From assembly GCF_026210795.1 (NCBI RefSeq), contig NC_089435.1, positions 5,270,001 through 5,334,000 of the forward strand: DNA of 64,000 bases, given 5' to 3'. The position numbers were made by a program, and so were the translations under genes. Of this stretch, positions 22,691 to 60,173 are shown piece after piece. The number at the start of each line of letters is the position of its first letter. The first letter of the stretch is position 1. The DNA comes from Rhizophagus irregularis. Taxonomy: Eukaryota. A model generated the notes under the pieces. The model was given only the letters and a program-made list of their open reading frames with translations. It had not been told where the DNA came from and searched no databases.

Positions 22691-22782
22691 ATCAAATATA
22701 CCTAAAAATTGGATTCCTGATATTTAAACGATTAGTCACTAATATGTAACACTGAATCAATCTTACACATATCGGGTACCGA

Positions 22783-24016
22783 TGTAAACGGCCGAATATC
22801 AAGCACGAAAAGAAGATAAAATTCAACCGCCAAATGTAATTATTAAGTATTAAGAACGAACAAATTAATCGTGGATTGGCGTAGATGGATAAATAATTAG
22901 CCGAAAAGGATAAACATTTAAGAAGAGTAATGATCTGCATGACGTAATATTTATTGAATGATTGACAAAGAACCAATAGGATAAATAGAGTCGATCATTT
23001 GCGGCTTAGCGATCTTTACAAGAACGATAAGAAAGAATAATTATAAGCCACGAAAGATAGATTATAAGCAAAATATATAAAGTGGATTAAAAGAACATAT
23101 AAAATAATGTCGGAAAGATTAAAGAACACAAAATAATATAAAAGATAATATGAAAAGATGGCATAAAGATGGAATATAAAAGATAACATATTAAAAAGAA
23201 CATATATAAAAGATAACACAGCCACAAAAGATGAATTATATCTTTACGACATAATATTTGAAAGATTATTTTAAAGAGAAGATAGCACAGCCATAAAAGA
23301 TGGGTTATAAATTATTTCTTTACGATGTAATATTCAGATAATAGAAAAGATAATATATAAAATAATATATAAGATAGCATATTAAAAGATAGCGTATTTA
23401 AAATATAGATAGTATATTAGAAAGATAGTTCAAAGATAATATGTAAAGAACATGAAAGATAGTATATAGATAGAATAGAAAGTAGCATAAAAATTGTATA
23501 TATAGAGAACGGAATTCAAAGTAATTCCATAGTTCGCATCCACAGAACTCAATAAAATATAAGTTTCGTTTAATTATTTGTTAATGAAGTTTAATATTAA
23601 TTAAAGGTAATAGGTTCGCCCTAAACTTTAATTAATGTTTGATTAATTAATTTTAATTAATGAAAATTTAAGAAGAATTAAATATATGTTTTGAAAAGTG
23701 ATAATTCGTAGCGAGAGCTATCGAAGTTTGAAATTAAAGGTAAAAGTGGATATAATTTGAGGAAAGAGACGTATATTTTATTTTATATCGTTTAATGTTT
23801 TGTATTACTAACACTATTTATTTTATGAACCAAGAATGTTGTTGTACGTTGTTCGCTGATGTTGTTGTTTGTTAATTATGTTTTGATCACGTGCTTGTTC
23901 GTTTAATTGTTCGTTCGTTCGTTTGTTTGTTCGTTCATTCGTTCGTTCGACCATGAGAATGCCCGTTCGATGTGGCAACCTTGTAAATTGATGACAGGGG
24001 GAATTGGGGGATCTCA
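22783..24016 (+). repeat. 5' LTR (1234 bp)
   Basis: TGTAAACGGCC...GGGATCTCA; only two substitutions versus the 3' LTR noticed by eye. Confidence 0.97.
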
Positions 24017-24018
24017 TA

Positions 24019-24032
24019 TGGTGCATGCTCGC
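24019..24032 (+). promoter_or_regulatory. Putative primer-binding site
   Basis: TGGTGCATGCTCGC begins 2 nt after the LTR. TGG is complementary to tRNA CCA; the primer tRNA is not established (Gly-like acceptor possible). Confidence 0.6.
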
Positions 24033-25587
24033 AAGAAAGGAAATGATCATCATCACATGATTATTATTAATATGAAAATTTAATTTCGTTGGTAAGTCAC
24101 TGATAGGTATTATTAATCAATATTTTATTTTAGAATTTATTTTTAGATTTCAGGTTTTGACGAGTTCAAAAGGAACCAATAAATCAATAAGGATTTAACG
24201 AGTTAAAAACTTGAAAAGGTGAAAGATTGGAGTTTGAAGTTGTGCAAGTAATCACTTAATCGATAGAAAGCACAAGAATGTTTCTTTCGGGAATAAAGTA
24301 CCTGAGAAATTTCATAAGGAGATGTAGAAGTTAAAGATAAATTTTGGAATAAAGATTAATAATGGGAGAACACCAATGTATTATCCGGGGTTCATCTGTG
24401 TGGTATGGGTTACCTCTGAGTTTGGATTTTGGATAAATGCTCAAGATTGGAAAATTTTTATTCTTCGACATTAAAGATTATAACGTATGGGTTACGTCAA
24501 ATCTGGATACCCAGCTCAATAAATGCGCAAATTGCTTTGGGGACGGAAAATGAAGATTGTAAAGACACCTACTATCAAGAAACATTGAATGGATAAAATA
24601 GGACAAACCTGAAAACTGTCGTGCTTTTATTCCAATGTGGGGTATCTCCAGCGGGTAAAAGATAGAGATAAGCTCAGTATAGGTCAGGAAGATAAGTTGG
24701 TTAGACGAGTTTTGAGGATAGCAGATGACTTTTGAAACTGGATTTTGGAAGGTTAGATTCACCCGTTGAGAAACGAGTCGGCCAACGAAGAAGGAAAAAA
24801 CGGACACGTTGTATTGTTACAGGTCCTAGGCTACATTTCAGATGAGGGTTCCTGGTGTAGTGTCCTAGTTCACGCTCTCACTACAATGTTCCGTTAAAAG
24901 AAGAAAAAATAGAAGGATATTTACACATTAACGAGCCGTATAATGAACATTACGTGCAGTATTTAATAATAGAGTAAAATCCGAAAAGAAGGACATTTAT
25001 TTAAAAGAAGAACATTTATTTGAAAAGAAGGATATTTATTTGAAAAGAACGACATTTTGTGTGTTATAGATTAATTTATATAATATAGAATATATAGTAA
25101 GAAGGATTTATATGGACGATAAGAAAGATTGGAAATTCGCAAACCTTAAAAGTTACGAAAATTTTGAAGTTTGTGATATGTGAAATTATGGATCTTGGTG
25201 ACAAAAAGATGTGACAAAAAGAGGTGATAAGTGAAACTATGAATCACGGTGACGAAAAGATGTGACATGTGAAATTATGGAAATCGGTGATAAAAGATAA
25301 ATTTTAGGGCGCAGTAAAAACCTCCGCAGCCTGAGGAGATTGTGGACTTAGAAAAATTTTTGAAATTTTATGGCGCAGTAAAAATTAATAGTAAAATATA
25401 GCGTAGTAAATATATAGAACTGAAAGATGGAATTTAAAGATTGAGAGAAGTAATCTATTTGAAGATAAAAAGAATGTTTAGAAGATCAAAAATAGAAACG
25501 ATAAGAGTGAAATATATATATATATAGAGAGAGGAGTCCGATTGAAATTCTGGATGGATATTCATGGCAATTTAACTAAAGCATACA

Positions 25588-28500
25588 ATGGAATGGTACC
25601 ATCAATGGGAAAGCGAATATAGAACACATAAAGAAGAACACGAATTAGGAACGGAAGAATTGGACGAATGTTTAAATTGTGAATTATGTTATCCAATAGT
25701 AAATGAACCAATAGTATTCAAGAAATTTTGGGACGCATTATTTAAATTTGAAGATGCAATAATAATATATAATGACGTAACAATTAAGGGAGTATTAGAT
25801 TTATTAAGTATGAACAATTCAGAAAGAGAGGATACAATACATAAAGGAAAATGCAGAGATATAATGGATAGAATAACAGAATCAATAAGATATAGAATAC
25901 AACCAAAGATGAAAGAAAAAGGATTACGAACAATTATATTAGTAATTGTAAGAGATTGTATTGAAAGAAATCTGGAGAATGAAGTATTTGATAGATTAAT
26001 TGGAAATCCTGAATTAATAGAACACAAATATATTTTGGAAGATTGGGATGTTGAAAGAAGGTTTGAAAAATTTTGGCAATGGTATAGAATCACATCGAAA
26101 GAAATTGGACCATTACGAGTAAAGATAGGAGCAATAAAGACATTTAGGGAATTACTATATGAAGAAGAAGGAATAGCTATGAATGAAGAGAAAGTAAAGG
26201 AACTAATGTCCGATGTAGAATATGAGAACATACATATAGAAAATGTTCATGAATATCATAGGAATATGGTACAAAAGATAATAAGAATATTTATAGATAC
26301 TAGGGGTTTTACAAAAGAACCAGAAGATTCAGAAAGTGAAGATAGTCCAGCAAGTTACGAGTTGGAAAATGATTCTGAGGAAGAATTAGAGATAATAATA
26401 GGAGACAAATCATGGAAATTTAGTGAATTAAGAAGAAGGTCAAATGTTATGGATAAAGATCAACTGAGGTACATTTGGAAGATAGGAATAAAGTTGATGA
26501 TAGAAATGGATATATTGGTAACGAGAATATTTATGGACAAAATTCAAGAGGTAGAGGAATTGGATGAAAGAGAAAAAGAATTGAGGATAAAAGAATGGTT
26601 AGAAAAAGAAACAATAATGTGTGAAAAATGTGGTAATAGAAGGTTCGAAATGGACGAAGCGGATAGCGAGTGCGGGGAATGTGTTAAAGAAGCGCAGAAG
26701 AATGAACAAGATGAGCTAATAGAATTAAGAAACAACTTAGAAAAATTGGGATATGAAATAGATGTGTCAGAAATTCAAAGAATGAAGAGTTTTGGGGTAA
26801 ATAATCGAATAATGGTAACTAAAGAATTTGTGGAAGAATATATGGAAGTGATAGATTTGGAAGATAAAGAATTAAGAAAAGAAATCCATAAGTGGTTAAA
26901 CAAGAATACAACTTGGTGCGAAAGATGTGAAATAAGATGGATGAATGATATGTTTAGATTAGGATGGATGGATGATATGTCTAGAGTAAGAGGAATGGTA
27001 TGCAAAGATTGTGAAGAAGAAAATATCGATGAAATTGATGATCGGGTAAAAAGATTACAGAAGATTTTTGAAGATATTGGAACAATAATAACTGAAGAAG
27101 AATTGTTGAGATTAACTAGTATGGGATATACAGATGGAGAAATTTTAGATAAAGAATTCATTGAAATCTTTCAAGAAAATAAAAATAAGTCGGAAAAAGA
27201 ATTGAAGAAAAAGTTAGATAAGTTGTTGAAAGGACAAACAGGAACAATAGATAGTGAAGAAAGTGGCGAAAGAAGCGATAATGAAGAATCAGAAGAAGAT
27301 AATACAGATGATTCAGAAAAGATTGGAGAAATATTAAGTCCGGATGAAAGATGGGATGAAGATATTGAAAATTTTAACGAAGAAGAATTTGAAGATGAAG
27401 TTGAAAATGTTATAAATAGAGGGGATAGCGACTTAAGTCAAAACTCAGATACGAATAGTTCATTAAATATTAAAAATTCTGACAACGAAAGTGAATTATC
27501 TGATTACAATTTACAAGATTTATTTCAAGAGAATATATTGAAGATGGCAACTGAGGGTCAAATAAAAAGAGTGATAGAAAATGCTTTAGGTTTTCCAGCA
27601 AATACTTTGAACGCAGCAGTAGGAGCAGGAGGAAGTTTGATAGAAAGGATCGAAAATGCAGGGAACGAAGCAGGAGGAACAATTAGTATACCACTCTTTT
27701 ATGGAAGAGAAGATGAAGATGTTACTGATTGGGTTAGACAATTCGAGGTAGCATTTGCAGCAGTCGGAAAAGCAGCGGGGGCTAATGGCGTAAGACAAGC
27801 GGTATACGCAGCAGCACATTTAAGAGGGGCAGCAGCACAATGGTATAATGAAATGAAAGAAGTAAATGCGGGAAACTTAGTGAATTGGGCAGATGCAGAT
27901 AATGATAATGATTTAAAGCATAGAATAAAAAGAAGATTTACCAGAGAGGATGTTAGAAGAAAGAAAATGCTAGAATTAAGAAAAACCCGACAAGAAACAA
28001 GTGAAAGTGTTGAAGAATATACAAGAAGATTTAGACAAATATTAAGAATAGCAACTAGAGGACATGCCTTAGCAGACGAATATCAAGTAGATTTTTATAT
28101 TGAAGGATTAGAACCAACAATAGGGTATCAAGTTAGAAGACAGAATCCAGCGAACTTAAATGGGGCGATAGAAATAGCAGTAAGGGAAGAAGGTGCGAAA
28201 GACGAATTTTTAAGAAAAGCAATAGGAACGTCAATTAGTACGAAGATAGACATCGGAAAAGACGATAATAGACAAAATATGTTCGCAAAACCATTGAACG
28301 AAAATTATGAGGACGAATTAGCTGAAATGTTTAAAGAAAAGGCAAAAATCAGTAAATTAGAAGCACAAATAGCAAGTATGGAGAGAAGATTAAATAACGA
28401 TAATAGGAATAGGTATCGATCAAATATGGGAAGGAGATTAAATAATGGTAATAGGAATAGTTATCAACCAAATCAGATTAGGGTACCAACATGTTACGGA

Positions 28501-29181
28501 TGTAATAGAGTGGGGCATTATAAGAATAATTGTCCTGAAGGAAGGAATGCAAGATTAAATATGATAGACGAATATGATGATCAAGAAGAATACTATTATG
28601 ATGAATATGGATACGAGGAACCACAATACGGTGAAATGTATTATACACAAGGCTATTACGATGATTATGAAGATAGAGAATTAAATTATCATAGTGAATT
28701 ATACGCAAAAGATGACGCAGTAAAAGGAAGAAGACAATCAAGAAGAACGAGTCCAATAGTGGGATATAAAAACAATGATGAAGGAAGAAATTTACAAGAA
28801 GAATTAAGAGAAGCAGGAAATAGAATGGATGATAGAGAAATACCAACTGGTACAACAGCACCAAATTATATACCTGAACGAACTGAACAAAATGGGGATA
28901 GACCAATGGGACCAAAAGGAATGAGGTGGAGTAATAAAAGGCAAGCTTATTACGACCCAACAGAAGGACTAAGAAAATGGAGAGAAGCAGGAGGACCAAC
29001 AAAGCCCAGAGAATATGGACCAAGACTAACTGACGGAATACCACCTTATGACATTGTGGAAGATGTGAAAAATTGTAGAGCGAATATAACATATGGACAA
29101 TTAGTAAACGGGAATCCTAAGTACCATAAACAATTAAGAGAAGGAACATATAGACCAAGAAGTATAAACGAGAAAAATTGA
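25588..29181 (+). CDS. gag: Gag with a ~650-aa N-terminal extension
   Basis: 1197-aa ORF; retrotransposon gag region (IPLFYGREDEDVTDWVRQFE...LRGAAAQWY...RQETSESVEEY) and CCHC knuckle CYGCNRVGHYKNNC. Confidence 0.92.
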   Translation: MEWYHQWESEYRTHKEEHELGTEELDECLNCELCYPIVNEPIVFKKFWDALFKFEDAIIIYNDVTIKGVLDLLSMNNSEREDTIHKGKCRDIMDRITESIRYRIQPKMKEKGLRTIILVIVRDCIERNLENEVFDRLIGNPELIEHKYILEDWDVERRFEKFWQWYRITSKEIGPLRVKIGAIKTFRELLYEEEGIAMNEEKVKELMSDVEYENIHIENVHEYHRNMVQKIIRIFIDTRGFTKEPEDSESEDSPASYELENDSEEELEIIIGDKSWKFSELRRRSNVMDKDQLRYIWKIGIKLMIEMDILVTRIFMDKIQEVEELDEREKELRIKEWLEKETIMCEKCGNRRFEMDEADSECGECVKEAQKNEQDELIELRNNLEKLGYEIDVSEIQRMKSFGVNNRIMVTKEFVEEYMEVIDLEDKELRKEIHKWLNKNTTWCERCEIRWMNDMFRLGWMDDMSRVRGMVCKDCEEENIDEIDDRVKRLQKIFEDIGTIITEEELLRLTSMGYTDGEILDKEFIEIFQENKNKSEKELKKKLDKLLKGQTGTIDSEESGERSDNEESEEDNTDDSEKIGEILSPDERWDEDIENFNEEEFEDEVENVINRGDSDLSQNSDTNSSLNIKNSDNESELSDYNLQDLFQENILKMATEGQIKRVIENALGFPANTLNAAVGAGGSLIERIENAGNEAGGTISIPLFYGREDEDVTDWVRQFEVAFAAVGKAAGANGVRQAVYAAAHLRGAAAQWYNEMKEVNAGNLVNWADADNDNDLKHRIKRRFTREDVRRKKMLELRKTRQETSESVEEYTRRFRQILRIATRGHALADEYQVDFYIEGLEPTIGYQVRRQNPANLNGAIEIAVREEGAKDEFLRKAIGTSISTKIDIGKDDNRQNMFAKPLNENYEDELAEMFKEKAKISKLEAQIASMERRLNNDNRNRYRSNMGRRLNNGNRNSYQPNQIRVPTCYGCNRVGHYKNNCPEGRNARLNMIDEYDDQEEYYYDEYGYEEPQYGEMYYTQGYYDDYEDRELNYHSELYAKDDAVKGRRQSRRTSPIVGYKNNDEGRNLQEELREAGNRMDDREIPTGTTAPNYIPERTEQNGDRPMGPKGMRWSNKRQAYYDPTEGLRKWREAGGPTKPREYGPRLTDGIPPYDIVEDVKNCRANITYGQLVNGNPKYHKQLREGTYRPRSINEKN

Positions 29182-29694
29182 CTACACTCGGTGGGAACTA
29201 TGAAAGATGAAGAGAAAAGAACTACAGCGATGAGAACGGAATTAGAAGTTGAAGATCAATTAGTGAGTGTAATAATAGATACCGGAGCAGCAGTAAGCGT
29301 GATAACAGATAAATTAAGAAGAAGATTGAATATACCTATATTTGGAAAAAGTAAATTTAGATGTACAATAGCAAATGGGCAAAAGATAGCAGCATTAGGA
29401 AAGGCAAATATAACTTTAAGATACAAAGATGAATTAGAGATATTAAGAGACGTTGAAGTAATCGATTCAGAAGAGGAGGATCTAATTTTGGGAAATGATA
29501 TATGGAAGCTGTATAATGCAAAAATAAATTTCGAAGATCATACCTTAAGAATAGAAGAACGGGGAGAAATAATAACGATCCCAGTAGGATATGAAAGAGA
29601 AGCAATATATGAAAGCGAAGAGAGCGAGGACGATGAAGAATATGAAAGTAACGATGAGGGAGAGGTATTCAAAATGCACCAGAATTTTAAATAG
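29182..29694 (+). CDS. Retroviral-like aspartic protease, in frame with gag after a single TGA
   Basis: VIIDTGAAVSVI and LILGND motifs. Confidence 0.92.
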   Translation, partial: LHSVGTMKDEEKRTTAMRTELEVEDQLVSVIIDTGAAVSVITDKLRRRLNIPIFGKSKFRCTIANGQKIAALGKANITLRYKDELEILRDVEVIDSEEEDLILGNDIWKLYNAKINFEDHTLRIEERGEIITIPVGYEREAIYESEESEDDEEYESNDEGEVFKMHQNFK

Positions 29695-29729
29695 AGAGTC
29701 TTGGCTCTGAAGAGAGAGAGACGGAAAAG

Positions 29730-31817
29730 ATGCTTAAACCTAGTGAAAAATTTATGCAGAAATTAAGTATAGGGAAAGTGGAAGAACCAATTTGGGAAAA
29801 TATGGTAAAATTATTATTAAAATACCAAGATATTTTGGAATATGACAAAGAAATAGAAGGAAGAACAAAAGCGGCGCAACATGAGATAAAAATAAAAGAT
29901 GGGGTAGAACCAATAAAGCAAAGAAGATACAAAGAAACAGATGAGAAGGCAAAATTTATAAGTGAAGAAGTAGATAAATTATTAAGACAAGGAAGGATAA
30001 GAAAATCAAAGAGTCCGTGGAGTTCACCGGTTACATTAGCAGGAAAGAAAACAGGAAAATATAGATTTTGTATTGATTACAGAAAGTTAAACAAGATAAC
30101 TATAATGGATAGTTTTCCTTTACCAAGGATGGATGAATTGTTAGACAAATATAGAAAAGCAAAATGGTTTTCAAGTATAGATTTAGCGGCGGGATTTAAT
30201 CAAGTAGAAATGAAAGAAGAAGACAAAGAAAAAACAGCATTTGTATGTTCAAAGGGATTATTTGAATATAATGTAATGCCGTTCGGTTTAACGAACGCAC
30301 CAGCAACATTTCAGAGATTAATGGATGAAATATTAGAAGAATACATAAACGATTTTGTGGTAGTATATATCGATGATATTATGATATATTCAGAAAATTT
30401 AAAAGACCATATGGAACATGTGGAAAAAGTATTAAAGAAGCTACAGGAGAATAATTTGATAATAAAATTAAAGAAATGTAGATTTTTGGAAAGAAATATA
30501 GAATTTTTAGGACATATAGTAGGAAATGATGGATTAAGGCCAGACGATAAAAAGATAGAAAAGATAAAAGAAATGAAGGCACCAACAACAGTGAAAGAAG
30601 TTAGATCATTTTTAGGACTTTGCTCATATTACAGAAAATTTGTGAAGAATTTTTCAAAGATAGCAAGACCAATAAGTGATTTGAGAAAGAAGGGAATACC
30701 TTTTATTTGGGGAAGAGAACAACAAGAAGCGTTTGAAAAATTGAAAGAAAAGTTAATACAATATCCAATATTGCGACATCCAGATTGGAAGAAAGAATTT
30801 TTATTAATAACAGATGCATCAGGAAAAGGATTAGGCGCAGTATTGAGTCAAAAAGATGAAAAAGGAAAAGAAGTAGTAATAGCATATGCAAGTAGAAGTT
30901 TATTACCAGCGGAAGAAAATTATCCGATAACAGAGTTGGAATGTTTAGGAATAGTTTGGGGAATCCAACATTTTCATAAATATTTAATCGATAGAAAATT
31001 TAAAGTAATAACAGATCACAGTGCATTAAAGGGATTAATGAATGCGAAGATACCAAAAGGAAGAAGAGCAAGATGGGTAATGGAATTACAGCAATATAAT
31101 TTTGAAGTAGTACACAGGTCGGGAAAAGAAAACACGAACGCTGACGCATTAAGTAGATTATTAAAGATAGTGGAGGAACAACCAGAAATAGTAATAATCG
31201 ACGGAGTAGACGGATTGGGAAAAACAAGTATAGTACAAAATTTAATTGGAGAATGGGAAAAACAAGGATTAAAAGTAAGATTCAATACTTATAAAAGAAG
31301 AAGAAAAGATAAAGATGAATTTCACGAATCAAAGATGGATACAGAATGGAAATTCAGAAAAGAAGTAGTGGAACAAATAAATAGAAGAATGTTAGAATAT
31401 GATGAAGATACAGATATAATAATTTTAGACAAATCACCATATTGTGAATATTATTATCAAAAGACGAAAAGTTTTGACAGAGGGTTAATTACTCCACATG
31501 GAAATCATGAGATGGAAAAAGAAATATTTAGATTGAAAGAAACAATAGATAAATCAATAGTGATATTTTTAGAAAAAGATGGCAATGTATGTTGGGAAAA
31601 TTACATTGGAAGAGAAACAAAGAAAACGGAAAAATCATCATATCCAACATTAAAAAAGGATGAATATTTGGACATGGTTAAAATGTTTGAAGAAAATCAG
31701 AGCGTATACAAATATACCAAAAGATACAGTCGAGTAAAAGTTAAAAATGACAATAGTAGTTGGAGAAAAGTATTTAAAGAGGTGGAAAAATGGAGAATGG
31801 TTAAAGAAATTTTATGA
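29730..31817 (+). CDS. pol: Pol: reverse transcriptase, RNase H and a thymidylate/dNMP-kinase-like P-loop domain
   Basis: SPWSSP, RFCIDYRKLN, MPFGLTNAPATFQ, YIDD, TDAS, TDH and NADALSR, followed by IIDGVDGLGKTS...IILDKSPY. Confidence 0.93.
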   Translation: MLKPSEKFMQKLSIGKVEEPIWENMVKLLLKYQDILEYDKEIEGRTKAAQHEIKIKDGVEPIKQRRYKETDEKAKFISEEVDKLLRQGRIRKSKSPWSSPVTLAGKKTGKYRFCIDYRKLNKITIMDSFPLPRMDELLDKYRKAKWFSSIDLAAGFNQVEMKEEDKEKTAFVCSKGLFEYNVMPFGLTNAPATFQRLMDEILEEYINDFVVVYIDDIMIYSENLKDHMEHVEKVLKKLQENNLIIKLKKCRFLERNIEFLGHIVGNDGLRPDDKKIEKIKEMKAPTTVKEVRSFLGLCSYYRKFVKNFSKIARPISDLRKKGIPFIWGREQQEAFEKLKEKLIQYPILRHPDWKKEFLLITDASGKGLGAVLSQKDEKGKEVVIAYASRSLLPAEENYPITELECLGIVWGIQHFHKYLIDRKFKVITDHSALKGLMNAKIPKGRRARWVMELQQYNFEVVHRSGKENTNADALSRLLKIVEEQPEIVIIDGVDGLGKTSIVQNLIGEWEKQGLKVRFNTYKRRRKDKDEFHESKMDTEWKFRKEVVEQINRRMLEYDEDTDIIILDKSPYCEYYYQKTKSFDRGLITPHGNHEMEKEIFRLKETIDKSIVIFLEKDGNVCWENYIGRETKKTEKSSYPTLKKDEYLDMVKMFEENQSVYKYTKRYSRVKVKNDNSSWRKVFKEVEKWRMVKEIL

Positions 31818-31955
31818 TCGAGGGGGATTTACACCAAGAATAGTAATTAAAGGAAAAGAGGTATTCGATAAGACCCGAGTTCGATTCAATTAGAATTATT
31901 ATGAACGAGACCCGAGTTCGATTCTTTTAAAGTTATTTGTGAGGTCACAAATAGC

Positions 31956-31969
31956 GAAGAGGGGGATAA
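31956..31969 (+). promoter_or_regulatory. Polypurine tract
   Basis: GAAGAGGGGGATAA abuts the 3' LTR. Confidence 0.85.
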
Positions 31970-33203
31970 TGTAAACGGCCGAATATCAAGCACGAAAAGA
32001 AGATAAAATTCAACCGCCAAATGTAATTATTAAGTATTAAGAACGAACAAATTAATCGTGGATTGGCGTAGATGGATAAATAATTAGCCGAAAAGGATAA
32101 ACATTTAAGAAGAGTAATGATCTGCATGACGTAATATTTATTGAATGATTGACAAAGAACCAATAGGATAAATAGAGTCGATCATTTGCGGCTTAGCGAT
32201 CTTTACAAGAACGATAAGAAAGAATAATTATAAGCCACGAAAGATAGATTATAAGCAAAATATATAAAGTGGATTAAAAGAACATATAAAATAATGTCGG
32301 AAAGATTAAAGAACACAAAATAATATAAAAGATAATATGAAAAGATGGCATAAAGATGGAATATAAAAGATAACATATTAAAAAGAACATATATAAAAGA
32401 TAACACAGCCACAAAAGATGAATTATATCTTTACGACATAATATTTGAAAGATTATTTTAAAGAGAAGATAGCACAGCCATAAAAGATGGGTTATAAATT
32501 ATTTCTTTACGATGTAATATTCGGATAATAGAAAAGATAATATATAAAATAATATATAAGATAGCATATTAAAAGATAGCGTATTTAAAATATAGATAGT
32601 ATATTAGAAAGATAGTTCAAAGATAATATGTAAAGAACATGAAAGATAGTATATAGATAGAATAGAAAGTAGCATAAAAATTGTATATATAGAGAACGGA
32701 ATTCAAAGTAATTCCATAGTTCGCATCCACAGAACTCAATAAAATATAAGTTTCGTTTAATTATTTGTTAATGAAGTTTAATATTAATTAAAGGTAATAG
32801 GTTCGCCCTAAACTTTAATTAATGTTTGATTAATTAATTTTAATTAATGAAAATTTAAGAAGAATTAAATATATGTTTTGAAAAGTGATAATTCGTAGCG
32901 AGAGCTATCGAAGTTTGAAATTAAAGGTAAAAGTGGATATAATTTGAGGAAAGAGACGTATATTTTATTTTATATCGTTTAATGTTTTGTATTACTAACA
33001 CTATTTATTTTATGAACCAAGAATGTTGTTGTACGTTGTTCGCTGATGTTGTTGTTTGTTAATTATGTTTTGATCACGTGCTTGTTCGTTTAATTGTTCG
33101 TTTGTTCGTTTGTTTGTTCGTTCATTCGTTCGTTCGACCATGAGAATGCCCGTTCGATGTGGCAACCTTGTAAATTGATGACAGGGGGAATTGGGGGATC
33201 TCA
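31970..33203 (+). repeat. 3' LTR (1234 bp)
   Basis: Direct repeat of 22783-24016. Confidence 0.97.
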
Positions 33204-35319
33204 CCGATATGCAAAATATTTATTTATTGTATTTGTATTATATAATCCAAAGAGGTATATTAAAATTATTACTAAAAAAGTATTTTAATATTAAAGATAA
33301 TCGTTTATTCATATAAAACCCCTTATTTTCAATTTTTTTTTATTTTTTCTAATATCACGAATAACTGACAAAAATATTAAAAATATACATACCGTATTTT
33401 GTGGGCTACAGTACCCCCCCTATACACAGTATTTTACACAAATTTTTTTTTGGATTTTTTAAATACCCAGATTATACATGTAGCTGAAACCTCTATGAAG
33501 CTAAACAGGGTTTCAGACTTTCAGTAATTTAATTATAATAAATTATAATAAATTATTAAAAACTATCCAAAAATCCATCTAAAACTCCAAAGACTTTATA
33601 TTATAGTTTCGGCTGGATGTAGAGATTAATTTTTATCATTTTTTAACTTAATTTTGATTTAAAGATGTGGCTAAAAATCACGTGAAAAAGTTTTGGCTAC
33701 AAGTATAACCCAGATATTTCGCACAGAGACATTCGATTTTTAACCTCTAAAATTTATAAAATATCTGAGGTACAACACTAGAAAAAAAAATATATACACT
33801 GTATAATATCCGGGTATTTATTATCAACTTTATTTATTATATATGATATTACAATATGCAATACATTGTTAAAATCCTTTATATTATTTCCTAAATTCTC
33901 TCAATATAGAACATTATTTTTCATCAGAAGTTAGTTCTTGATTTTGATTTCCATCTTCTCCACTACTATCATTACCACCATTATTTTCTTTACTCTTACC
34001 TTTATCTGTTTCAATTTCCCACTCATTTTCATAATCATTTTCTTCGGTATTCATTTTCTTCATCATCTGAATTATTTATATCTACCTCATCATCATCCTT
34101 CGGCATGTCCAGTAACTTATCATAATCAAATAAATCATTATCTTCTGAATCATCAGTATTTGTTGAAACTTCACAACATTTGAAAAACCTTCTAATAAGA
34201 TCTTCATCAACATCATCCTATGATTCCTTGACTCATGTTGCAACTGTTGAATAGGAAGGTCTTTTAATCCTTCTGGCTGGAATAAGAGCATGAATGGTAG
34301 AAGACATCCAATTATTATATCATTTTTTAACCTGCAAATTATAAATAAATGTTAACAAAAATCAAAGAATTTATAAATAAAATATGCTAAATTGCTAACA
34401 ATAAAAAATTTTAAAGAATTATATACAATTTTTACCTTAGCATCAGCAAGTTTGAAAAGTGTTGATTCACACCAGTATACGCGTTGATCAACACCAGCTA
34501 GTTGTTCAACGCGATTAATAATATTAATCAACACCCGTATACTGGAGTATATTAACGCTTAATGTTAATATACGCGTCATTCAACTCTAATGTGTAGTTC
34601 AACACATTATACATTGTTGTTTAACGCACTGTATATTAACACATACTATACTATTTTAATTAAATTAAATTATATTTATTTTTATTCACCTTAGGAATCG
34701 AACCAAATACCTCAACTTACACTATTAATTATTTCACGATCTAACCACTGCACTATTTAATTTAAGTATATATTTATATATATTAAACTTAATATTTAAA
34801 AAAAAAATTATTTCGGCAATTGCGTAATGTACTCTTATCATGTGTATCACGTGATACTAGACTTAATAATTACCGCTGCGGCAGTGCTGCGGCTGCGGTA
34901 TAGCAAAAAAAAAAATTAAGCTTTTTTTGGCAAAGCTTAATTTTTTTTGCTTTTTCCTCTTCGTTCTCCCCTTCCCTTTTGTTTTCCCATTACTCTTTCG
35001 TTCTTCCCTTCCTTCTCCCCTTCCTTTCATTTTCTCATTATCCTTTCGCTCTCCCCTTCATCCCTATAAAAAGTTCTATCCGTTATTTCTGTAAAAACCC
35101 GTAAAAATGAGCCTTTCACAGATCCATTCACGGAAAATGATAAATTCCGTAATAAAAGGTTATTAATTCTGGACCTTTTACGGAAGAAAGATGAAATATA
35201 AGAAATGGATTAACTTTCCCTTTCGTTCTCTCCTTCCCTTTTATTTTCCCATTACCCTTTCATCCCATTTTCCCCTTTACTTTCCCCTTTACTTTCCCCT
35301 TTCACTTTCCATTTCACAT

Positions 35320-36045
35320 TCTTTAACGAAACGTCAAAAAACGTTTCGAAAATAATTTTTTTCATATTGTTTTAATCGGAACGTTGGCTAACATTCTGAT
35401 TTTTTTTTTTATTTCATTTTTTAGCGAAACGTTAAAAAATGTTTCGAAATACATTTTTATTTCATATTTTTTTAATCGGAACGTTGGCTAACGTTCCGAT
35501 TTTTTTTGTTTTTTCATTCTTTAACAAAACGTTTTTTAACGTTTCGAAGCATTTCTTTTTTTAACTTTTTTAATCGGAACGTTAGCTAACGTTCCGATTT
35601 TTTATTTTATTTCATTTTTTTATTTACAAAACGTTTTTTAACGTTTTGAAACTTTTTTTTTAATTTTTTTTTAATCAGAACGTTAGCTAACGTTCCAATT
35701 TTTTTTATATTTTATTTTTTTACGAAACATTTTTTAACGTTTCATAATATGATTTTTTTTTCATATTTTTTTAATCGGAACGTTAGCTAACGTTCTGATT
35801 TTTTTATATTTTATTTTTTTACAAAACGTTTTTTAATGTTTTGTAATAATATTTTTTTTTTTCACATTTTTTTAATCGGAACGTTAGCTAACGTTCCAAT
35901 TTTTTTTATATTTTATTTTTTTACGAAACGTTTTTTAACGTTTCGTAATAATATTTTTTTTCACATTTTTTTAATCGGAACGTTAGCTATAACGTTCTGA
36001 TTTTTTTTCATTTCATTTTTTAACAAAACGTCAAAAAACGTTCGT
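35320..36045. repeat. Tandem ~120-bp repeats with palindromes CGGAACGTTAGCTAACGTTCCG and GAAACGTT..AACGTTTC
   Basis: About six units, flanked by TTCCC/TTTCG low-complexity tracts. Confidence 0.85.
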
Positions 36046-36456
36046 TCTCCCTTTTTGTTATTTTCCCCTTTCCCTTTTCATTCCGTTCTTCCTATTCCCC
36101 TTCGTTTTCCCCTTTCCCTTTACGAATATTGAGAAAAAATCATTTTTTAAAAGTGTTTCTGTATTATTTTTTTCTTGAAAAAAGTAAATTTATTAAGTAA
36201 AATAAATTATAGAAAACTTTTTAAATATACATAAAAAATCTCTTTATTTGAGATTTTGATATAAAAAAATAATTTAGCAATTAAAACGCGTCTTTCCCTT
36301 TCGTTATCCCTTCCCCTTTTCATTTTTCCCATTTTTATTTCGTTTCTTCCTTTTCCCTTTCGTTCTCCCTTCCCCTTTCGTTATCTTCTTTCCCTTTTCG
36401 TTATCCCCTTCCATTTTCGTTTTCCCTTTCCCTTTCGTACTCCCGTTTCCCAAATG

Positions 36457-38000
36457 GTAAGTTTCAAAGCGTTCGCTTCAAAACTTTTTTTTTAATTTTA
36501 TTTTTTATTGTTTATGAGGGAACGTTTCTAACGTTTCCTTTGGTTTTTTTTTGTAGGACCTTCGTTATTGTACTTCGGAGCGAAATGGTGAGTTTCGAAG
36601 CGTTTCACTTTGAAACTTTTTTTTTTAAAGTTTTTTTTTAATTAGGAAACATTACTGACGTTTCCTGTATTTTTTTGTAGGTCTTTTGGCTCGTTTTCAG
36701 TTCGAAATATTGAAAACGGTAAGTTTTGAAGCGTTCGCTTCAAAACTCTTAAAATTATTTTTTATCTTTTAGGAAACATTACTAATGTTTCTATATTTTT
36801 TTTGTAGGTTTTTGGCGTGTTCGATTCAGTATATTGAAAACAGTAAGTTTTTGACACGTCGAAACTTTAAAAAAAAAAAATATTTTTTTAAATTACTTTT
36901 TAGGAAACATTTCTAACGTTTTGATACTTTTTTTTTATAGGCCTTTCAGTGTGTTTGACCTCAGAAAACGAAATGGTAAGTTTCGAAGCGTTCGCTTCGA
37001 AACTTTTATTATTTTTTTTAATTTCTTTTAGGAAACGTTTCTAACGTTTCCTTTCTTTTTTTTGTGTAGGGATTTTGGTGACTTTGGAAAACTTGGAAAC
37101 GAAAGTTAAGTTTTTAAAGCTTTCGTTATAAAATGTTTTTTTTTTACTTTTTTATAAGGAACGTTTCTAACATTTCCTTTATTTTTTTTTGTAGGTCTTT
37201 CGTTATTTTTGGCTTTGGAAAACGGGAAATGAAAGGGTAAGTTTTAGCTTCGAAACTTTTTTAAAAATTTTTTTTTTAATTCTTTTTTTGTAAGGAAACG
37301 TTTCTAACGTTTCCTTTCCTTTCTTTTTGTGTAGGATTTACGGTATTCGACTGAAATGGTAAGTTTCACTTTGAAACTTATTATTTTTTTTTATTACTTT
37401 TAGAAAACGTTTACTAACGTTTCCTTTCTTTTTGTAGGTTCGGAAATATCTGGTATTGGATACGGGTCCTGAAACGGTAAGTTTCGTTTGCAATGAAACT
37501 TCCGTTTTTTTGTTTTTTTTCTTTAAAAAACGTTCTAACTTAACGTTTATCTTTTTTTTGTAGGTTCAAGAATATGGTTTTGGATATGGGTCATGAAACG
37601 GTAAGTTTCGTTCGCTACGAAACTTCTGTTGTTCTTTTTTTATTTCTTTTTAATTAGGAAATGTTTACTGACATTTCCTTTTTCTTTTATTTAGGTTTCG
37701 GGAATTCATATCTTGGTTAGTTGTTGTAGATTCAGCCGTTTCGAATTCGGAAACTTAGATTTGGTAAGTTTTGCGAAATATTTTTTTTTGTTTTTTTTTT
37801 AATATAAACGCTTGCTAATGTCTCTTGATTATTTTTTGTAGGTTTAAGCTCGTCTTCAACTGGAAACTTGAAATGGTAAGTTTCGTCGCGAAACTATATA
37901 TATATGTTTTTAATAGAAACGTTTCTAACGTTTCCTTTTTCTTTTTTGTAGATAGGCTTGGATCAGATTGTGTAAGTTTCATTAACGAAACTTTTATTTG
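36457..38000 (+). repeat. Tandem intron/micro-exon array (~12 units, ~130-bp period)
   Basis: Repeated GTAAGTTTCGAAGCGTTCGCTTCGAAAC...AGGAAACGTTTCTAACGTTTCCT...TTTTGTAG separated by variable exons, e.g. 36557-36587, 36681-36718, 36808-36842, 36941-36975. Confidence 0.85.
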
Positions 38001-40014
38001 TGTTTTTTTTATTTGAAATCCCACCTTGTTATTGTTGTGTCACCAGAGGCGCTTTGTCAACGGAAATTTAGTACGTTGATCGCTTAAAAATCTGCGGCAA
38101 TCCAATTATAACAAGAGGAATTAAATTTTTTAGATAATGTATTTGTATTATTTGTATTTTACAATAAATTTATAATATTTACAATTAAATTTTATATGTT
38201 AAATAATATACAATAAATTATGTTAATAAATTACTATAAAGTTAACTATTGTACAAACCATTGCTATACGCGTTTTTAATATCAATATACGCGTTTTTAT
38301 ACATTGTATACACGTTTTTAAACTATCGTTGTTTTACTACGTGTAGTTTTACATTTAAATTGGTGTTGTTTTACGCGTTTTTAAACATTTTTAAGTAGCG
38401 TTGATTGACAAAGGGTTTGTTTCCCTACGTTTTTTGGCGTTGAACAACACATGGCATTTTTTAACAATTTATACGCCTGTTTAAAACTTGCTGATGAGCT
38501 TTAAAGCTTTTGTTAATTGCAATATTTAATGGTTGCAATTTAAATGTGCAACCACCTGGAATTATGGCAATATTTGTATTTTTTTCTACCAACCGATTTT
38601 TAACAGAACTTATAATATGACTACGAAAAGAATCCAAAACCAGTAAGGAATGTGAATTACTAAAAGGGTTTCTTGAGATCCATACAGTTTCAATCCACCA
38701 TAGCATTTCCTTTTCATTCATCCATCTTTTTTCATTAGCTTGTATATGAATACCATATGGAAAATTTTCTTTTGGCACATTTTTCAATTTAAAAATGCAA
38801 ACTGCTAGAAGCTTACTGCCATCAGCTATACATACAAGCAGGGTTGGGAAATGTACTGTACTGAGTTTTTTTAGTATAAGTACATTTTTTTATATAAATT
38901 ACAGAGGTATTTTTAATCATATATACCCTGATTTTAAGTGGTCCAGTGATTAGATTTCAATAAAATTAAGCTTATTAGATTCGTCTCAATGAGAGGAATT
39001 TAATAGTATTTATTTTATCATAAATAAATAAATATTGACAGAGTTAGCATTTGAAGTAACTTTATTAAATATATGGTATTTAAAATTTTAAGTACAATGT
39101 ACTAATTGTACTGTACTGTACTGTACTGTACTGTACTAAAATTTTACCTTGTACGTCATATTTTAAGCTGCTGTCATGCAAGTCTACTTTATAAAAGATG
39201 ACATTCATGGCGCGTAGTATGAATGCTGACTGTTTTTGTGCCCTTATGGTCTATAGTGAAATTACTTGGCAAATCAAACCATAGTAGTGTCTCATCTATA
39301 TTACCTATATATTTTAATGGATAGTCATGCTGAATCCTTCTATATAAAATATAATTCAAAAAAACGTTTTGTTTTTCAATTAAATCTAATGGTAATTGTT
39401 ATGCTATAGTTATTTTACGACATTTACTAAGATTATATTTTCCTAAAAAACCACTTAGCCATTTATTTGAAAATTTAAATGAAGTGATATTTGGATTATT
39501 TGCTAAAAAATCCTGATTTCTAGACAACGTAATAGCTTTTTTGGTAATCATTTTTTGAGTAACAGGATTTTGATTCGTTTTTTTTTCACAAATCCACGTA
39601 AATAAATCATCTTCTAAATCTGGATATTTGGCAGATTTACCCGAAAGAAGCTTAAGAAAGGACCCCAGATATCTAATATAAAGGTCATAATAAACTTTTG
39701 GCCAAAAATACCTCTTTTTGCTGAAACTCGAAAAATCGTTTTTTGTAAATATCTCAGCATCCAGTGATTCAATTTTAATGAAATATTTTTTATTTTGTAG
39801 CCCTCATTTAGCTCTACAATTTAAAAAAAAAGTTCATTAAATTTGGACCACTGGATGCCGAGATATTTACAAAAAACGATTTTTTGAACTCCTGAAAAAT
39901 GGGCCAATCTGCCGAAAGTGTGACTTGAACTCTTTCTTGTAGATCCTTGGTCAAAAATTTCACGAAAGAAATTTTTACTCTTCGTATTAACACATCTCTT
40001 ATTTTACTACTAAA

Positions 40015-52522: not shown

Positions 52523-52639
52523 ATTACTAGTCATTGCTATTCATCATCTCTTTACTGTATATTTACATGTTGTTAATGGTTTGGAACATTGTTCCAGTTG
52601 GTTTGATTCTAACAAACAATTAGCAAAATGGAAAAAAAA

Positions 52640-55600
52640 TCTATACAAAAATAAAGGAAAAACGAACATTAGTATAAAGTTCGTAAAATTCGTTAAAAAA
52701 AAGTAAAAGGATTTCAAAGTAATTACCTTAAATATTACTTTGAAATTTTGTTCAGAAACCCGTCTAAAGTCATAGGACCTAAAAAAATTGAACGTTAATT
52801 AACGTTCATCAAATAATTTATTAAAAAAATAAACTTTCAACAGTTTTACCTTCAAAAATGAGTCTGGAGCTATACTTCAGTGTTCTGGACGTACAAAATA
52901 TAAAAATGAACGTTAGATAAATTAAAAAAATATAAAAAAATTAAAGAATTTCAAAGTTTACCTTTGAAATTTACGTCTGAAAAACCATAGACCTATAAAA
53001 CCTATAAAAAAAATACAAATGAAACGTTAATCAATGTTTTACTAAATAAAATTAAAAACTTTCGAAGATTATACTTTCGAAATGATGTCCAGAGTACTTT
53101 CGGTGTTCTGGACTTACAAAAAATAAGAACGACATTCGTTAAATAAAATAAAAAAAATAAAAAAAATTTTAAATTTTGAAGTTTTAACCTTCGAAATTCC
53201 ATTATGTCTGGAAAGCCAATAACCTATAAAAAGAGAAAATTGAAACGTTAGCCAACGTTTCATTAAATAAAAAAAAACTAATAGAATTTTAAAGTTTTAC
53301 TTTTGAAATTCCATCCAGACAAAAACAGGAGAGCTGAAACCTTAAAAAAAAGAGAAAGACAAAACATTAATAACATTTTGCTAAAATAAAACAAAAAACA
53401 GAATTTCAAAGTTTACCTTTGAAATTCTGTCCAAGAGGCATCCAGAAAGCCGAAAATCTACAAAAAAAAGAAAACTGAAACGTTAATAATGTTTCGTTTA
53501 AATAAAATAAAAATAAATATTAGTTTCGTAACAAAAAGTTCATTACAAAACTTACCATGTTAAAATCCAGACGAGCTGAAACCCTAAAAAAAAAGAATAA
53601 AAGAACATTAGAAAAATGTTCTTTAACCTTTATAAAATTAAAAAATATATATATATAATTTCGCAATAAGATGTTGCGAAACTTATCATTTTCATTTTGG
53701 GAATCTTTGGAGTACCAAAACTACAAAAAAGAATAAAGAACGTTAGAAACGTTCTTTTATAAAATAAAAAAATATAAGTTTTGTAATGAAAAATTCATTA
53801 CGAAACTTACCCTCTCTTAATATCCAAGAAAAAAAAATTTGAAAGTTAGTCTTTCGGCTTTCTTTACCTAAAAAAAAAAGAAATACGAACGTTAGTTAAC
53901 ATTCGTCAATAAATTAATTAAAAAAAAATAATTTCAAAGGTTTTACTTTCAAATGAGTCTGGAACATACTTTCGGCGTTCTGAACCTAAAAAAAATAAAA
54001 TAACGAAATGTTAGTAAAATGTTCGTTAAAGAAAATCAAAAATAAAAAACTTCAAAGTGCTATTACCTTCGAAGTTCTTCTAAGTTCTCCAAATGGAAGT
54101 TCAGAACCTAAAAATAATAAAAAATGAACGTTAGTATAATGCTCGTTAAAGAAAAATAAAACAAAAAGAAACTTTGAAGTGTTATACCTTTGAAGTTCTT
54201 TCAAATGGAGCCAGAATCTAAAAAATAAAAGAAAAATGAATGTTAATAGAATATTTGTTAAAGAAAAATAAAAAAAAAGAATTTTGAAGTGTTATTATCT
54301 TTGAAGTTCTTTCAAATGGAGCTGAAACCTAAAAAATAAAAGAATACGAACGTTAGTAGAATGTTCGTTAAAGAAAAAAATCACAAAAAAATATATATAA
54401 AGAATTTGAAGGTTTACCTTCAAATTCTTTCATCCAGTAGCCAGAGAACCAAAACCTTACAAAAAAAATACCTGAAACATTAGTAAACATTTCGTAAATT
54501 AAAAGTAACAAAAAAAAATAAGAATTTTGAAGGTTTACCTTCGAAATCCTTCTAAATGTGAACAGGAACCTAAAAAAATAAATGAAAGCTGAACATTAAT
54601 AAAAAAAATACAAAAAAAACACGTTTCAAAAATATACTTTCCATTCTATCAATCCAAAGCGCAAAGTTAATGCCAACACCTACAAAAGAAAGAAAAAAAA
54701 ATTAAATAAAATTTTTTAAATAAAAAAGTTTCAAAGCCTTCCGCTTCAAAACTTGCCAATCCAAAAACCCAGGAATCGAAAGCTGATACCTACAAAAGAA
54801 AGAATAAAAATTGTTAAAATTTTTTGACGATTTTTTTATAAAAAAAGTTTTGAAACTTAATGCATAAAACCTTCGATCCAAGAACTGATGCTAATACCTA
54901 CAAAAGAAAGAAAGAAAGAAAAATTTAATAAAATTTCTCAAGAAAAAATATTTTAAAAAAAAGTTTCGAAGCAAATGCTTCGAAACTTACCAATCTAAAG
55001 CTTGGGACCGATACTGATACCTATAAAAGAATAAAGAAAATTAAATAAAATTACATTTAAAAAAAGTTTCGAAACTTCACTTTAAAACTTACCGATTAAA
55101 AGTCTAAAGATCTGCCGATACTTACAAAGAAAGAAAAAAAAATTAATATAATTTCTTAAAAAAAAAAAATTAAAAAAAGTAGTTTCAAAACTCTCACTTC
55201 GAAACTTACTTATCAAGAATTAAGAACCGAAGCCGATGCCTACCTACAAAAAGATGAAAAAAAAATTTAGTTGAAGTTTTTTTAATTTTTTAAAGAAAGT
55301 TTCAAAGCGAAAAAAAGCTTCGAAACTTACCAATTCAAACCTGAGGACTGATGTTGACACCTACAAAAATGAACATTTAGTAACGTTTCGTTAAAAGTAA
55401 AGATACAAAAAATATAAAAAAAAATTCGAAGGGTTTTACCTTCGAATTTTAGTCTAGAGCCGTTTTTCGGTATCTGAGATATAAAAATAATAAAAAATGA
55501 ACGTTAGCGATGTTCGTTAAACAAAAATATAATAAAAAAATTTCAAAGGTAAAGATTTTACCTTTGAAATAAGAGTCTGGAGCTGTTCTTCGGCATCCAG

Positions 55601-55990
55601 GACCTAAAAGTTTGATAAAACGAACGTTAGTGACGTTCGTTAAATAAAAAATAAAAAATTATTATTTTTTTTTAAAATAAATTAAAAAAAAAATTATTAT
55701 TATTTTTAAAAAAAAAATAAATTAAGATTCAGAGGTAAGCATACCTCCGAATTCCAACTAAAATCATCGATAGATTCTATCTAGAACTTATATAATATAA
55801 AAAAAAATAATTTTTTTTTTTAAAAAATAAATTAAGATTCGGAGGTAAGCATACCTCTGAATTCCAATATCTTTGATAGGTTCCATCTAGAACTTATATA
55901 ATATAATAAAAAATTATTATTTTTTTTAAAAAAATAAATTAAAATTCAGAAATTAATATACCTTCGAATTTTAGGAATCTATATAATATA
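52640..55990 (-). repeat. Long tandem intron/micro-exon array (roughly 25-28 units, ~120-bp period)
   Basis: Plus strand repeats (C)TTACC-[variable]-CCTA(C/T/A)AAAA-...AACGTTAG...; the reverse complement gives GTAA donors, CTAAC branch sites and T-rich TAG acceptors. Confidence 0.82.
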
Positions 55991-56115
55991 AAAAAAAATA
56001 ATTTTTTTTTTAAAAAATAAATTAAGATTCGGAGATAAGCATACCTCAGTAGTATGAAAATCCCAGTTCTGGCTCAGCACCACCATATAATCTAATTACT
56101 ACCACTTTCATATAA

Positions 56116-57100
56116 CACTGGTCAAAATTAATACTATCGGGTACCTATCGGGTACCTGATATGTGTACAATATATGTGATATATGTGTATGATATTTAAC
56201 AATGCTACACATATCAGGTATCCGATATGTGTAGTAGAAATGTAGAAAAACGGTGACACATCATGTACATATCACATATACATCTTACACATATCGGGTA
56301 GTTAAATATCGGTCACATATCATAGACTTATTGGGTATCCGATATATTATGATATATATCATATAGATATCATACAGATATCATACAGATATCAGACGGA
56401 TAGATATAGGATAATGATTTTGTATTAATACTAGTAGATTTATAATTTAATTCAGGCAAAAAAATTATAAAATGCAATCATAATTTATATATTTTTTTAA
56501 TTTTAATTCAAAACTTTATTACAATTTAAATTTATTTACACTTTTTAATTAAAAAAAAACAATTATACTAATTATACTTGAATACTTGAATAAATATATA
56601 TAATATATAACTTCTACTAAAAGTAGCATAAAAATAAAATCACTTGTTTGCTTATACCTGTTTGATTATTTAAAAGAAGCATTAATGATAAATATATTAG
56701 TAAGAGAAAAGAGAATGTTATTAAAAAATATTAGTATAGATATATAAATATAGAAAATATTAGTAGAAACATTAGCAGAAAGAAAAAGTTAGTAGAATAA
56801 AAAATGTTAGTAGAAAGAGAACGTATATCAGTAGTAATATAATATTAATAGAAAATATTAAATAGTAAAAATGTTAATATAGTAGAAAAAAATAATAAAA
56901 AATATATTAGTAGGAGTTGATCATCCTATCTCAGTAGTTGGTTACTGAGACCCTCATTAAGCCTGAGTATGGTGAGGTCGCAGGTTCGATTCCCATAATC
57001 ATGGAAATAAAAAGAATTTTACTGCGGACGCTACTACTAATAGCGTGAAAAAGTATAATTTAAATTAATTTGAAATACGCGTTATTATAAAAAATTTTCT
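56116..57100. mobile_element. Left part of a CACTGGTCAAA-terminus element
   Basis: CACTGGTCAAAA at 56116 followed by TATCGGGTACC repeats, as at 340-568 and 22690-22782; right boundary uncertain. Confidence 0.5.
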
Positions 57101-58958: not shown

Positions 58959-60173
58959 TTAATTTTCTTGTTGGTTCAAGACTACCTGTTGAATTTGAAA
59001 TAGGTCAATAGTAAAGTTACCAAGAGTAACTGTTGGGGGAACAATGGGGACATATCCAGCAGCAGCAGGAATCGTCGGCGGGTCCCAGAAAACTGCATTT
59101 ACTGGGATAATTATTTGAAATGCGGGGATATTAGGAGCATTACAACCAGAGAGGTGAGCATTGTCTGTTGGATGTCCTAATTGGTGAGTACCGAAATCCC
59201 ACTAAAATATATTGAGGTTATTAAGACGTTTTGATCAAAAATAAAAATTATAAATTAGCATCTTACCGTTAAATATCCAGGTACTCCTTGCTGAAATAAC
59301 ATCGCTGTCATTGATCTGTAGAAACGTCCTTGCAGATCCCGCGTTGTCCTTTTTTCATGAAATTTAATACCAAGTACATATCTTACATAAACTTGATTTA
59401 GCCAATTTTGGCATTTATTTCTCAAGTTACCAATACTTTGTGTATTGGCTACTTCACAAATAATTCGAGCATGTGGATTCCCCTAGACGAAAAATATTAA
59501 TGTTAGAAAATCGTAAATCAAATATCAGGTATTACAAATCTAAAAAAAATACATTTTTATCTCCAGGAGGAGGGCCAGGGTATGGAACAATAGGTTGTTG
59601 GACATGATTCCCATTTGGTTTAACCATAACATCCGAAGCTATGAATTGTCCCATTACAGTAGGATTAAAATGGACTAAAAGAGGGATGTAAAATATTTGA
59701 GAATCAATTATATATAGATTGAGAACCAAATATACTAGAGGAGTTCTCTTACATCCATCACCGGATACACTTATTGGTTTGTTAAGAATGACTCCGCCAT
59801 TTGCAATGTTAAAATAGTCTTGGAGCAACTCGACAACAGCATTATGTTCTGGGTCGCTCATATCGATCACATACACGTCACCATTAGTTCTATGTTCGTA
59901 TTTGTACCCAGAAGATTCTTTACGTTGAAGAAAATTATTGTACTCTTCTGCAGTTATTTTTGAGCCAATCTTACAAGGAAAACTGTCATTCATACAAGTT
60001 AATACTGAACAGATATAAAATAACTTGTGTATGATGCCCACTCACCTGCTTTCACTTAGTGGTTCGTCTTTTATTTCTGGATGTGGTTTAAGTAGTTTCT
60101 TTAAATTTTTTAGAGTCTCCTTCGCTAACCACACACCAGGAATATAATGTAAACGATGATTTCGACTAGACAT
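58959..60173 (-). CDS. Five-exon Uma2 / PD-(D/E)XK restriction-endonuclease-like protein
   Basis: Spliced product MSSRNHRLHY...ITAEEYNNFL..YKYE..GDVYVIDMSDPEH..IASDVMVKP..ARIICEVANTQ..VRYVLGIKF..WDFGT..FTIDLFQIQQVV; GT-AG introns; no stops noticed. Confidence 0.78.

Follow-up and report, generated by a model that had tools for sequence, protein, structure and literature searches.

Each insertion of an introner-like element places a single intron at a new site, and the coding genes that receive them are unrelated. Tandem-repeat arrays occur within DNA transposons as the internal repeats of CACTA elements and the central repeats of Helitrons, and the inside-out snoRNA host genes GAS5 and UHG are non-coding, with many short exons and introns that are better kept than those exons. 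In the fungus Blumeria hordei, spliced lncRNAs derived from transposons have a mean of 2.3 exons, and those with more than five make up less than 1.9%, according to the part of the report cited here (PMC10648671).

We analysed a window of 64,000 nucleotides from Rhizophagus irregularis (NC_089435.1, positions 5,270,001 to 5,334,000), a stretch of AT-rich DNA crowded with hAT, Gypsy, pogo and LINE transposons. The window contains two tandem arrays whose unit is a micro-exon followed by a predicted U2 intron (Table 1). Array 1 spans positions 36457-37951 on the forward strand and comprises 12 complete GT..AG units of 76-100 nt each, with a 13th donor at 37972, in agreement with the initial annotation, which had counted about 12 units. 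The exons measure 31, 38, 35, 35, 35, 42, 24, 39, 37, 69, 34 and 20 nt (range 20-69), and the exon bases that flank the introns are mostly G on both sides. Donors read GTAAGT in 11 of 13 cases and GTGAGT in one; the GTRAGT-like consensus originally described is therefore present in 12 of 13, the donor of unit 6 being degenerate. A YTRAY branch motif occurs in all 12 introns (8 CTAAC, 2 CTGAC and 2 CTAAT), with its A positioned 21-28 nt upstream of the AG end. The T-rich TAG acceptor is likewise present in 12 of 12, and the order of branch motif, pyrimidine tract and YAG is the same throughout. We regard this anatomy as practically certain. On balance we favour the interpretation of the locus as a non-coding tandem array of exons and U2 introns within a non-autonomous transposon, likely transcribed and spliced, and perhaps helping the element by way of an efficiently processed RNA.

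Table 1. Coordinates of the arrays, the carrier transposon and adjoining features (window positions)
Feature	Position	Strand	Remarks
Host pogo transposase, decayed 3' part, continuing past the element's left end	34190..34438	-	read by eye
Non-autonomous TIR DNA transposon, 4056 bp	34441..38496	.	16-nt TIRs, 15/16 matching; AG duplicated on both sides (2-bp TSD); no ORF of 120 aa inside
Left TIR, start CATCAGC	34441..34456	+	preceded by AG at 34439-34440
Left subterminal region	34478..34577	.	two TACGCGT motifs
100-bp tandem array, ~7 copies, 82% matches	35317..36031	.	internal control; AACGTT-loop-AACGTT hairpins and T tracts as in array 1, without donor or acceptor
CT-rich tract and predicted first exon	36292..36456	+	possible promoter region, inferred; not general among relatives
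Array 1, 12 predicted U2 introns	36457-36556, 36588-36680, 36719-36807, 36843-36940, 36976-37069, 37105-37194, 37237-37334, 37359-37437, 37477-37563, 37601-37694, 37764-37841, 37876-37951	+	micro-exons between
Exon 13 (20 nt), then 13th donor with short hairpin	37952..38133	+	acceptor uncertain: 38046 or 38133
Three AATAAA motifs, predicted transcript 3' end	38163..38230	+	
Right subterminal region	38267..38378	.	three TACGCGT motifs
Right TIR, 15/16 matching	38481..38496	-	followed by AG at 38497-38498
Host pogo/Tc5 transposase, 5' part, interrupted by the element	38497..39803	-	HTH_Tnp_Tc5 and DDE_1 matches
Array 2, same kind as array 1	52641..56099	-	at least 20 units by script, ~28 by eye; two donor-hairpin types

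Mean pairwise identity is 0.69 among the introns of array 1 (0.51 when shuffled) and 0.49 among its exons (0.40 when shuffled). The earlier statement that exons vary more than introns thus holds for introns taken whole, but not for the intron middle, which at +0.08 over shuffles is no better kept than the exons at +0.09. The excess resides in the donor (+0.48), the branch hairpin (+0.29) and the T tract with its AG (+0.21). Splice signals conserved no better than the rest of the unit had been named as the mark of an ordinary minisatellite; here all three of these segments exceed both the exons and the intron middle. Stops interrupt the joined exons in all three frames, two of which had been read before over the first exons with the same outcome, and the longest frame starting at an ATG has 60 aa.

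The carrier of array 1 is the non-coding TIR element that had been proposed, and its ends and target duplication are listed in Table 1. Elements of the CACTA/CMC superfamily have TIRs beginning CAC(TA/TG), a TSD of 2-3 bp and subterminal repeats; the 2-bp TSD and subterminal motifs of the 4056-bp element fit this description, whereas its CATC start does not. Matching ends were not found on the two Tnp2 elements that carry arrays (loci L045 and L017, below). In a near-identical, DNA-like run (X15) a contig leaves the right TIR into a different flank, and the element ends have a far higher summed depth than the unique pieces do, pointing to several copies of the element. The element also houses a 100-bp tandem array that is younger than array 1 and lacks splice sites, so the hairpins can spread without them. 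A short high-copy insert at 35063-35173 within the element is heavily covered in DNA and RNA runs and has many different flanks.

Array 2 lies on the opposite strand. Its last exon (50 nt, 52570-52620, reverse strand) is strongly kept in loci L032, L034, L050 and L052, whose arrays are otherwise different; it folds into two small stems, yet no compensatory change was found in the five sequences. The end of another element, at 56116-56420, begins with CACTG, has GATATGTG-type subterminal repeats and abuts the 5' end of the array. Decayed tRNA-like sequences with A- and B-box motifs are located at 34688-34755 (reverse strand) and approximately 56925-56995 (forward strand), each upstream of an array on the opposite strand. 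ARAGORN called no tRNA, these two sequences included, and the same arrangement was not found among the metagenome loci described below.

Several other features of the window were recorded. A MITE-like hairpin of 184 bp at 39716-39899, with 76-nt arms that are 84% complementary, sits just upstream of the pogo HTH frame and yields spurious miRNA-family matches. The Gypsy element at 22782-33203 is bounded by 1235-bp LTRs with 99.8% identity. At the end of its pol frame, where no integrase is visible, weak Pfam matches (E ~0.008) point to a P-loop thymidylate-kinase-like domain. Palindromic units of about 180 bp form an array at 14198-14847 that is a 650-bp inverted repeat, and a weak match to an OTU-like protease (E 4e-4) occurs at 12183-12899, near transposase-like frames at 15283-18111. 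For the protein encoded at 59535-60041, the identity is 81% with a protein of Rhizophagus clarus and 73% with one of R. irregularis.

Related loci were collected from metagenomes using a pattern made of the branch hairpin and the acceptor, with the donor absent from the pattern. The scan returned 74 loci, of which seven were dropped by eye as chance matches or as lacking array context (L008, L013, L030, L036, L061, L062 and L063) and 18 as near-duplicates, leaving 49 distinct loci on DNA fragments from soil. At least one full unit is present in 46 of these, at least two in 37 and at least three in 28. The exact 29-nt donor-hairpin pattern had no match in the metagenomes, and the branch-acceptor motif had none among viral contigs. 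A Pfam scan covering 62 of the 115 listed ORFs placed hAT matches beside arrays in seven loci, Tnp2 in two, Plavaka in one and Tet_JBP in one, and two of the proteins neighbouring arrays gave fungal leads. Arrays occur in either orientation, with the array strand opposite to the Pfam-match ORF in 7 of 12 loci. In L074 an intron has been interrupted by the nested hAT element, so adjacency alone is no proof of carriage. In L052 the array is enclosed by TIRs, with both ends about 70% like those of the 4056-bp element, units like those of array 2 and no visible TSD; in L045 the array lies downstream of a second gene, inside a Tnp2 element whose ends read CACTAG; in L011 it is the sole interior of a 1.1-kb TIR-bounded element; and in L015 and L017/L071 it lies upstream of an ORF on the same strand. 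Exon+intron arrays are real and widespread in DNA transposons, presumably those of mycorrhizal fungi.

L071 also bears an exon+intron array of an unrelated intron type, and one such array has exons of 45 and 42 nt. In this arrangement (L071 3405-4153 and 6551-8080; L017 2962-4491; L048 1854-3311) an array of the second kind precedes both a Tnp2 transposase and a dioxygenase frame of TET/JBP type, and L048 likewise combines an array with a Tet_JBP frame. At L044 an intact 943-aa frame without a Pfam match (130-2958) is convergent with the array. The CT-rich upstream tract was rejected as a general promoter, being found in 1 of 19 loci tested, though it is visible by eye at L026.

The unit of amplification is the micro-exon together with its intron, copied by tandem duplication. 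Similarity reaches at least 75% in 22 of 63 pairs of adjacent exons, compared with 7 of 2000 between-locus pairs, and the median identity of exons between loci is 0.43. Exons of the window match only neighbouring exons, save for a single 13-nt match at chance level; away from the arrays, a search of 284 kb gave only chance-level matches of 13-22 nt. A CRISPR-like reading, implied when the locus was called a repeat-spacer array, is excluded because the exons are duplicated from their neighbours and match nothing else in the 284 kb searched. The proposal that the array acts as a source of introner-like introns gained no support: units duplicate together with their exon, and neither in the window nor in the 49 loci was a lone unit recognised within a coding gene.

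Splice signals recur in the relatives on the expected strand. Of 199 units, 168 have a strong donor, where shuffles predict 67.5; it precedes the branch site by 25-95 nt, with a median of 52. A YAG lies within 12-45 nt of 122 of 142 non-seed hairpins but of only 7 of 29 antisense ones, and donor and YAG occur together at 99 of 142 compared with 3 of 29 antisense. Because the non-seed units arose by duplication from seed units, they depend on the search pattern, and in these counts only the donor and the loop variation are independent of it. When hairpins are defined in a strand-symmetric way, the loop ends in CT in 52 of 82 on the sense strand and in 0 of 82 on the other, while loop length and sequence vary. 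The array signals are near consensus (G|GTAAGT), and TACTAAY occurs in 21 of 82 hairpins. The 5' halves of the introns differ by family, being hairpin-bearing, G-rich or plain, and many families have no donor hairpin. Exon lengths divide into 28, 35 and 35 of 98 by remainder modulo 3 (p=0.61); they ignore reading phase, from which we conclude that the product is non-coding. A protein-coding micro-exon repeat was rejected on the closed joined frames and the phaseless exon lengths, and protein searches with read-through frames of related arrays matched no annotated spliced protein. From family to family the exons and the 5' halves of the introns are exchanged for others, while donor, branch motif, T tract and acceptor retain their order, spacing and strand, and this persistence across unrelated arrays suggests selection for splicing. 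The initial picture of a transposon-borne, non-coding sequence with units built as U2 introns is strengthened by these signals.

Three RNA runs yielded 729, 744 and 945 reads on the array 1 stretch, of which 91-98% diverge from it beyond the aligned part and so come from other copies. No GT..AG junction was present among the 15 joints listed (48 further joints are unlisted), in reads that come from other copies with different exons, to which spliced reads could not have aligned. Intron sequence of relatives is present in polyA libraries, again in reads from other copies. Judged from the splice signals, the arrays are quite probably spliced.

The introns of array 1 form two separate stems of 7-12 bp, with the intron ends unpaired. 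Folding is stronger than in shuffles for 9 of 12 introns (z -2.4 to -6.1) and not for units 4, 6 and 11; given these lost hairpins and the poor donor of unit 6, this copy may be decaying. RNAalifold recovers a donor stem and a branch stem, with changes on both sides in 4 of 15 pairs, and both the donor and the branch A are paired within the predicted stems. The donor hairpin as first quoted is exact in unit 5 only, other stems being shorter, and the branch site had been placed at the apex of its hairpin, where its CT does lie in the loop but the branch A itself belongs to the 3' arm of the stem. Covariation had been suggested earlier as a check on the stems. Compensated CpG pairs in the branch stem number 17 against about 7 expected (11 against 4.0, p=1e-4; 6 against 2.9, p=0.07), spread across many loci with L052 over-represented, and non-compensating cross-arm doubles number 8 against 6.9 (5 against 3.1; 3 against 3.8). 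Selection at the RNA level predicts that G-U is favoured over A-C in stems, but the G-U to A-C counts (19:23, 12:6, 11:12 and 21:31) do not favour G-U, and selection of this kind was rejected. Since pairs are compensated without a G-U excess, the hairpins look like DNA palindromes rather than released RNAs, and strand-symmetric copying from arm to arm fits the pattern better than RNA selection.

In the interpretation that we favour, splicing of the array transcript would likely leave a non-coding RNA about 0.7-0.8 kb long. The hairpins would be DNA palindromes kept perfect by arm-to-arm copying, and splicing would strip them out of the mature RNA. The element may gain because its transcript becomes an efficiently processed RNA instead of a silencing target; this benefit, and any role in silencing, is the weakest step, and we offer it tentatively and with more doubt than confidence. 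A bolder version, which we think rather unlikely, is that unrelated superfamilies of Glomeromycotan DNA transposons share and exchange a "splicing cassette", a self-amplifying exon+intron minisatellite selected purely to be spliced, with spliceosome marks on the element's RNA controlling host silencing. If true, transposons would possess a counter-defence that consists solely of introns and has neither a protein nor an RNA product.

The same units could instead form a neutral minisatellite, in which slippage and unequal exchange, acting at palindromes and T tracts, multiplied an ordinary intron and exon from an old transposon UTR or gene. The signals would then seem conserved through common descent and the faster decay of CpG-rich exons, and any splicing would be a by-product. 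Whole units do duplicate, a splice-less sister array lies in the same element, the stems show no G-U excess and change mostly by CpG transitions, and no spliced read appeared among RNA reads, which came from other copies. We nevertheless consider this account unlikely, because exons (median 0.43 between loci) and 5' intron halves are unrelated across families, yet donor, spacing and strand persist, and because an unrelated intron type has built its own exon+intron array in L071. Another idea takes the arrays for long untranslated regions (5' or 3') of transposon genes, or for what is left of their coding micro-exon repeats after erosion, with the gene lost from this copy. Same-strand arrays upstream of an ORF in L015 and L017/L071, the array downstream of a second gene in L045 and the 45- and 42-nt exons of the other intron type in L071 would suit it; the opposite orientation of array and Pfam-match ORF in 7 of 12 loci, the random exon phase and the content of L011, which is an array only, make it very doubtful.

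Two further accounts give the hairpins a function of their own. Release of the introns as structured RNAs, whether snoRNA-, mirtron- or introner-like, had been raised at the outset along with small RNAs, and would be in keeping with introns that are more alike than exons and carry two hairpins with compensated pairs. We find it barely credible. Searches of both arrays against Rfam gave below-threshold matches only, one of them near array 2 at E 0.09; box C and a 3' ACA each occur in 0 of 12 array 1 introns; G-U is not favoured in stems of only 7-12 bp with unpaired intron ends; and no unit was found inserted alone in a gene. A snoRNA host gene was rejected on the missing C/D and H/ACA boxes and Rfam match. 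A mirtron is an intron made of one long hairpin that serves as a Dicer substrate, and was rejected for introns with two separate short stems. Alternatively, the donor and branch hairpins could stall the spliceosome and feed transcripts into siRNA production, as SCANR does in Cryptococcus, so that the element limits its own activity. The pairing of donor and branch A within predicted stems and the intron-containing reads of relatives in polyA runs are compatible with such self-silencing, as are the stalled-spliceosome pathway described in the cited part of the Cryptococcus work (PMC5851062) and the Argonaute-loaded small RNAs of R. irregularis, again from the part cited (10.1101/2021.03.30.436303). 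However, the splice signals are near consensus rather than weak, the stems have no RNA-level signature and the donor hairpin is missing in many families, and we judge this account improbable.

About two-thirds of Rhizophagus repeats are unclassified, as given in the part of the source cited (PMC11075540), and among these the arrays can be recognised and appear to be common. Gene finders would likely render them as false multi-exon orphan genes. If the arrays are spliced, they show introns being multiplied in tandem where there is no protein to protect, and they offer a direct means of testing, in a fungus that has both RNAi and DNA methylation, whether the density of splicing itself governs the silencing of transposons. 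We found no description of such arrays in the literature; supplements and repeat libraries lay outside the search and may hold the elements as unnamed consensus sequences.

The locus shares features with each of the known systems while differing from all of them. CACTA and Helitron repeats are similar in forming a minisatellite between the ends of a non-autonomous element, whereas each unit of the arrays comprises a whole exon and intron whose splice signals are strand-specific. GAS5 and UHG resemble the arrays in their many short non-coding exons and in introns kept better than exons, but the arrays have no C/D or H/ACA boxes or Rfam match, and conservation is limited to the splice signals and the palindrome. 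Fungal introner-like elements and sister (stw)introns are comparable families of similar spliceosomal introns with internal symmetry, as described in the part of the source cited (PMC8469720); unlike introner-like elements, the arrays stay head to tail within transposons and duplicate with an exon. Glomhopper Crypton elements are intron-rich transposon sequences from the same group, the Glomeromycota, but their introns sit in the recombinase gene, and the main text, in the part cited, does not contain the word hairpin (PMC13465315). SCANR ties the splicing of transposon RNA to silencing and so provides a logic for a selective benefit, although, in the part of the report cited, it is a defence by which the host, Cryptococcus, acts against coding transcripts that are spliced poorly (PMC5851062). 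The Blumeria hordei lncRNAs are alike in being fungal non-coding transcripts with introns arising within transposons, often antisense to the transposon gene, again from the part cited; the arrays differ from them in having 12 to at least 20 related introns produced by tandem duplication, exons of 20-70 nt and splicing that is predicted only (PMC10648671).
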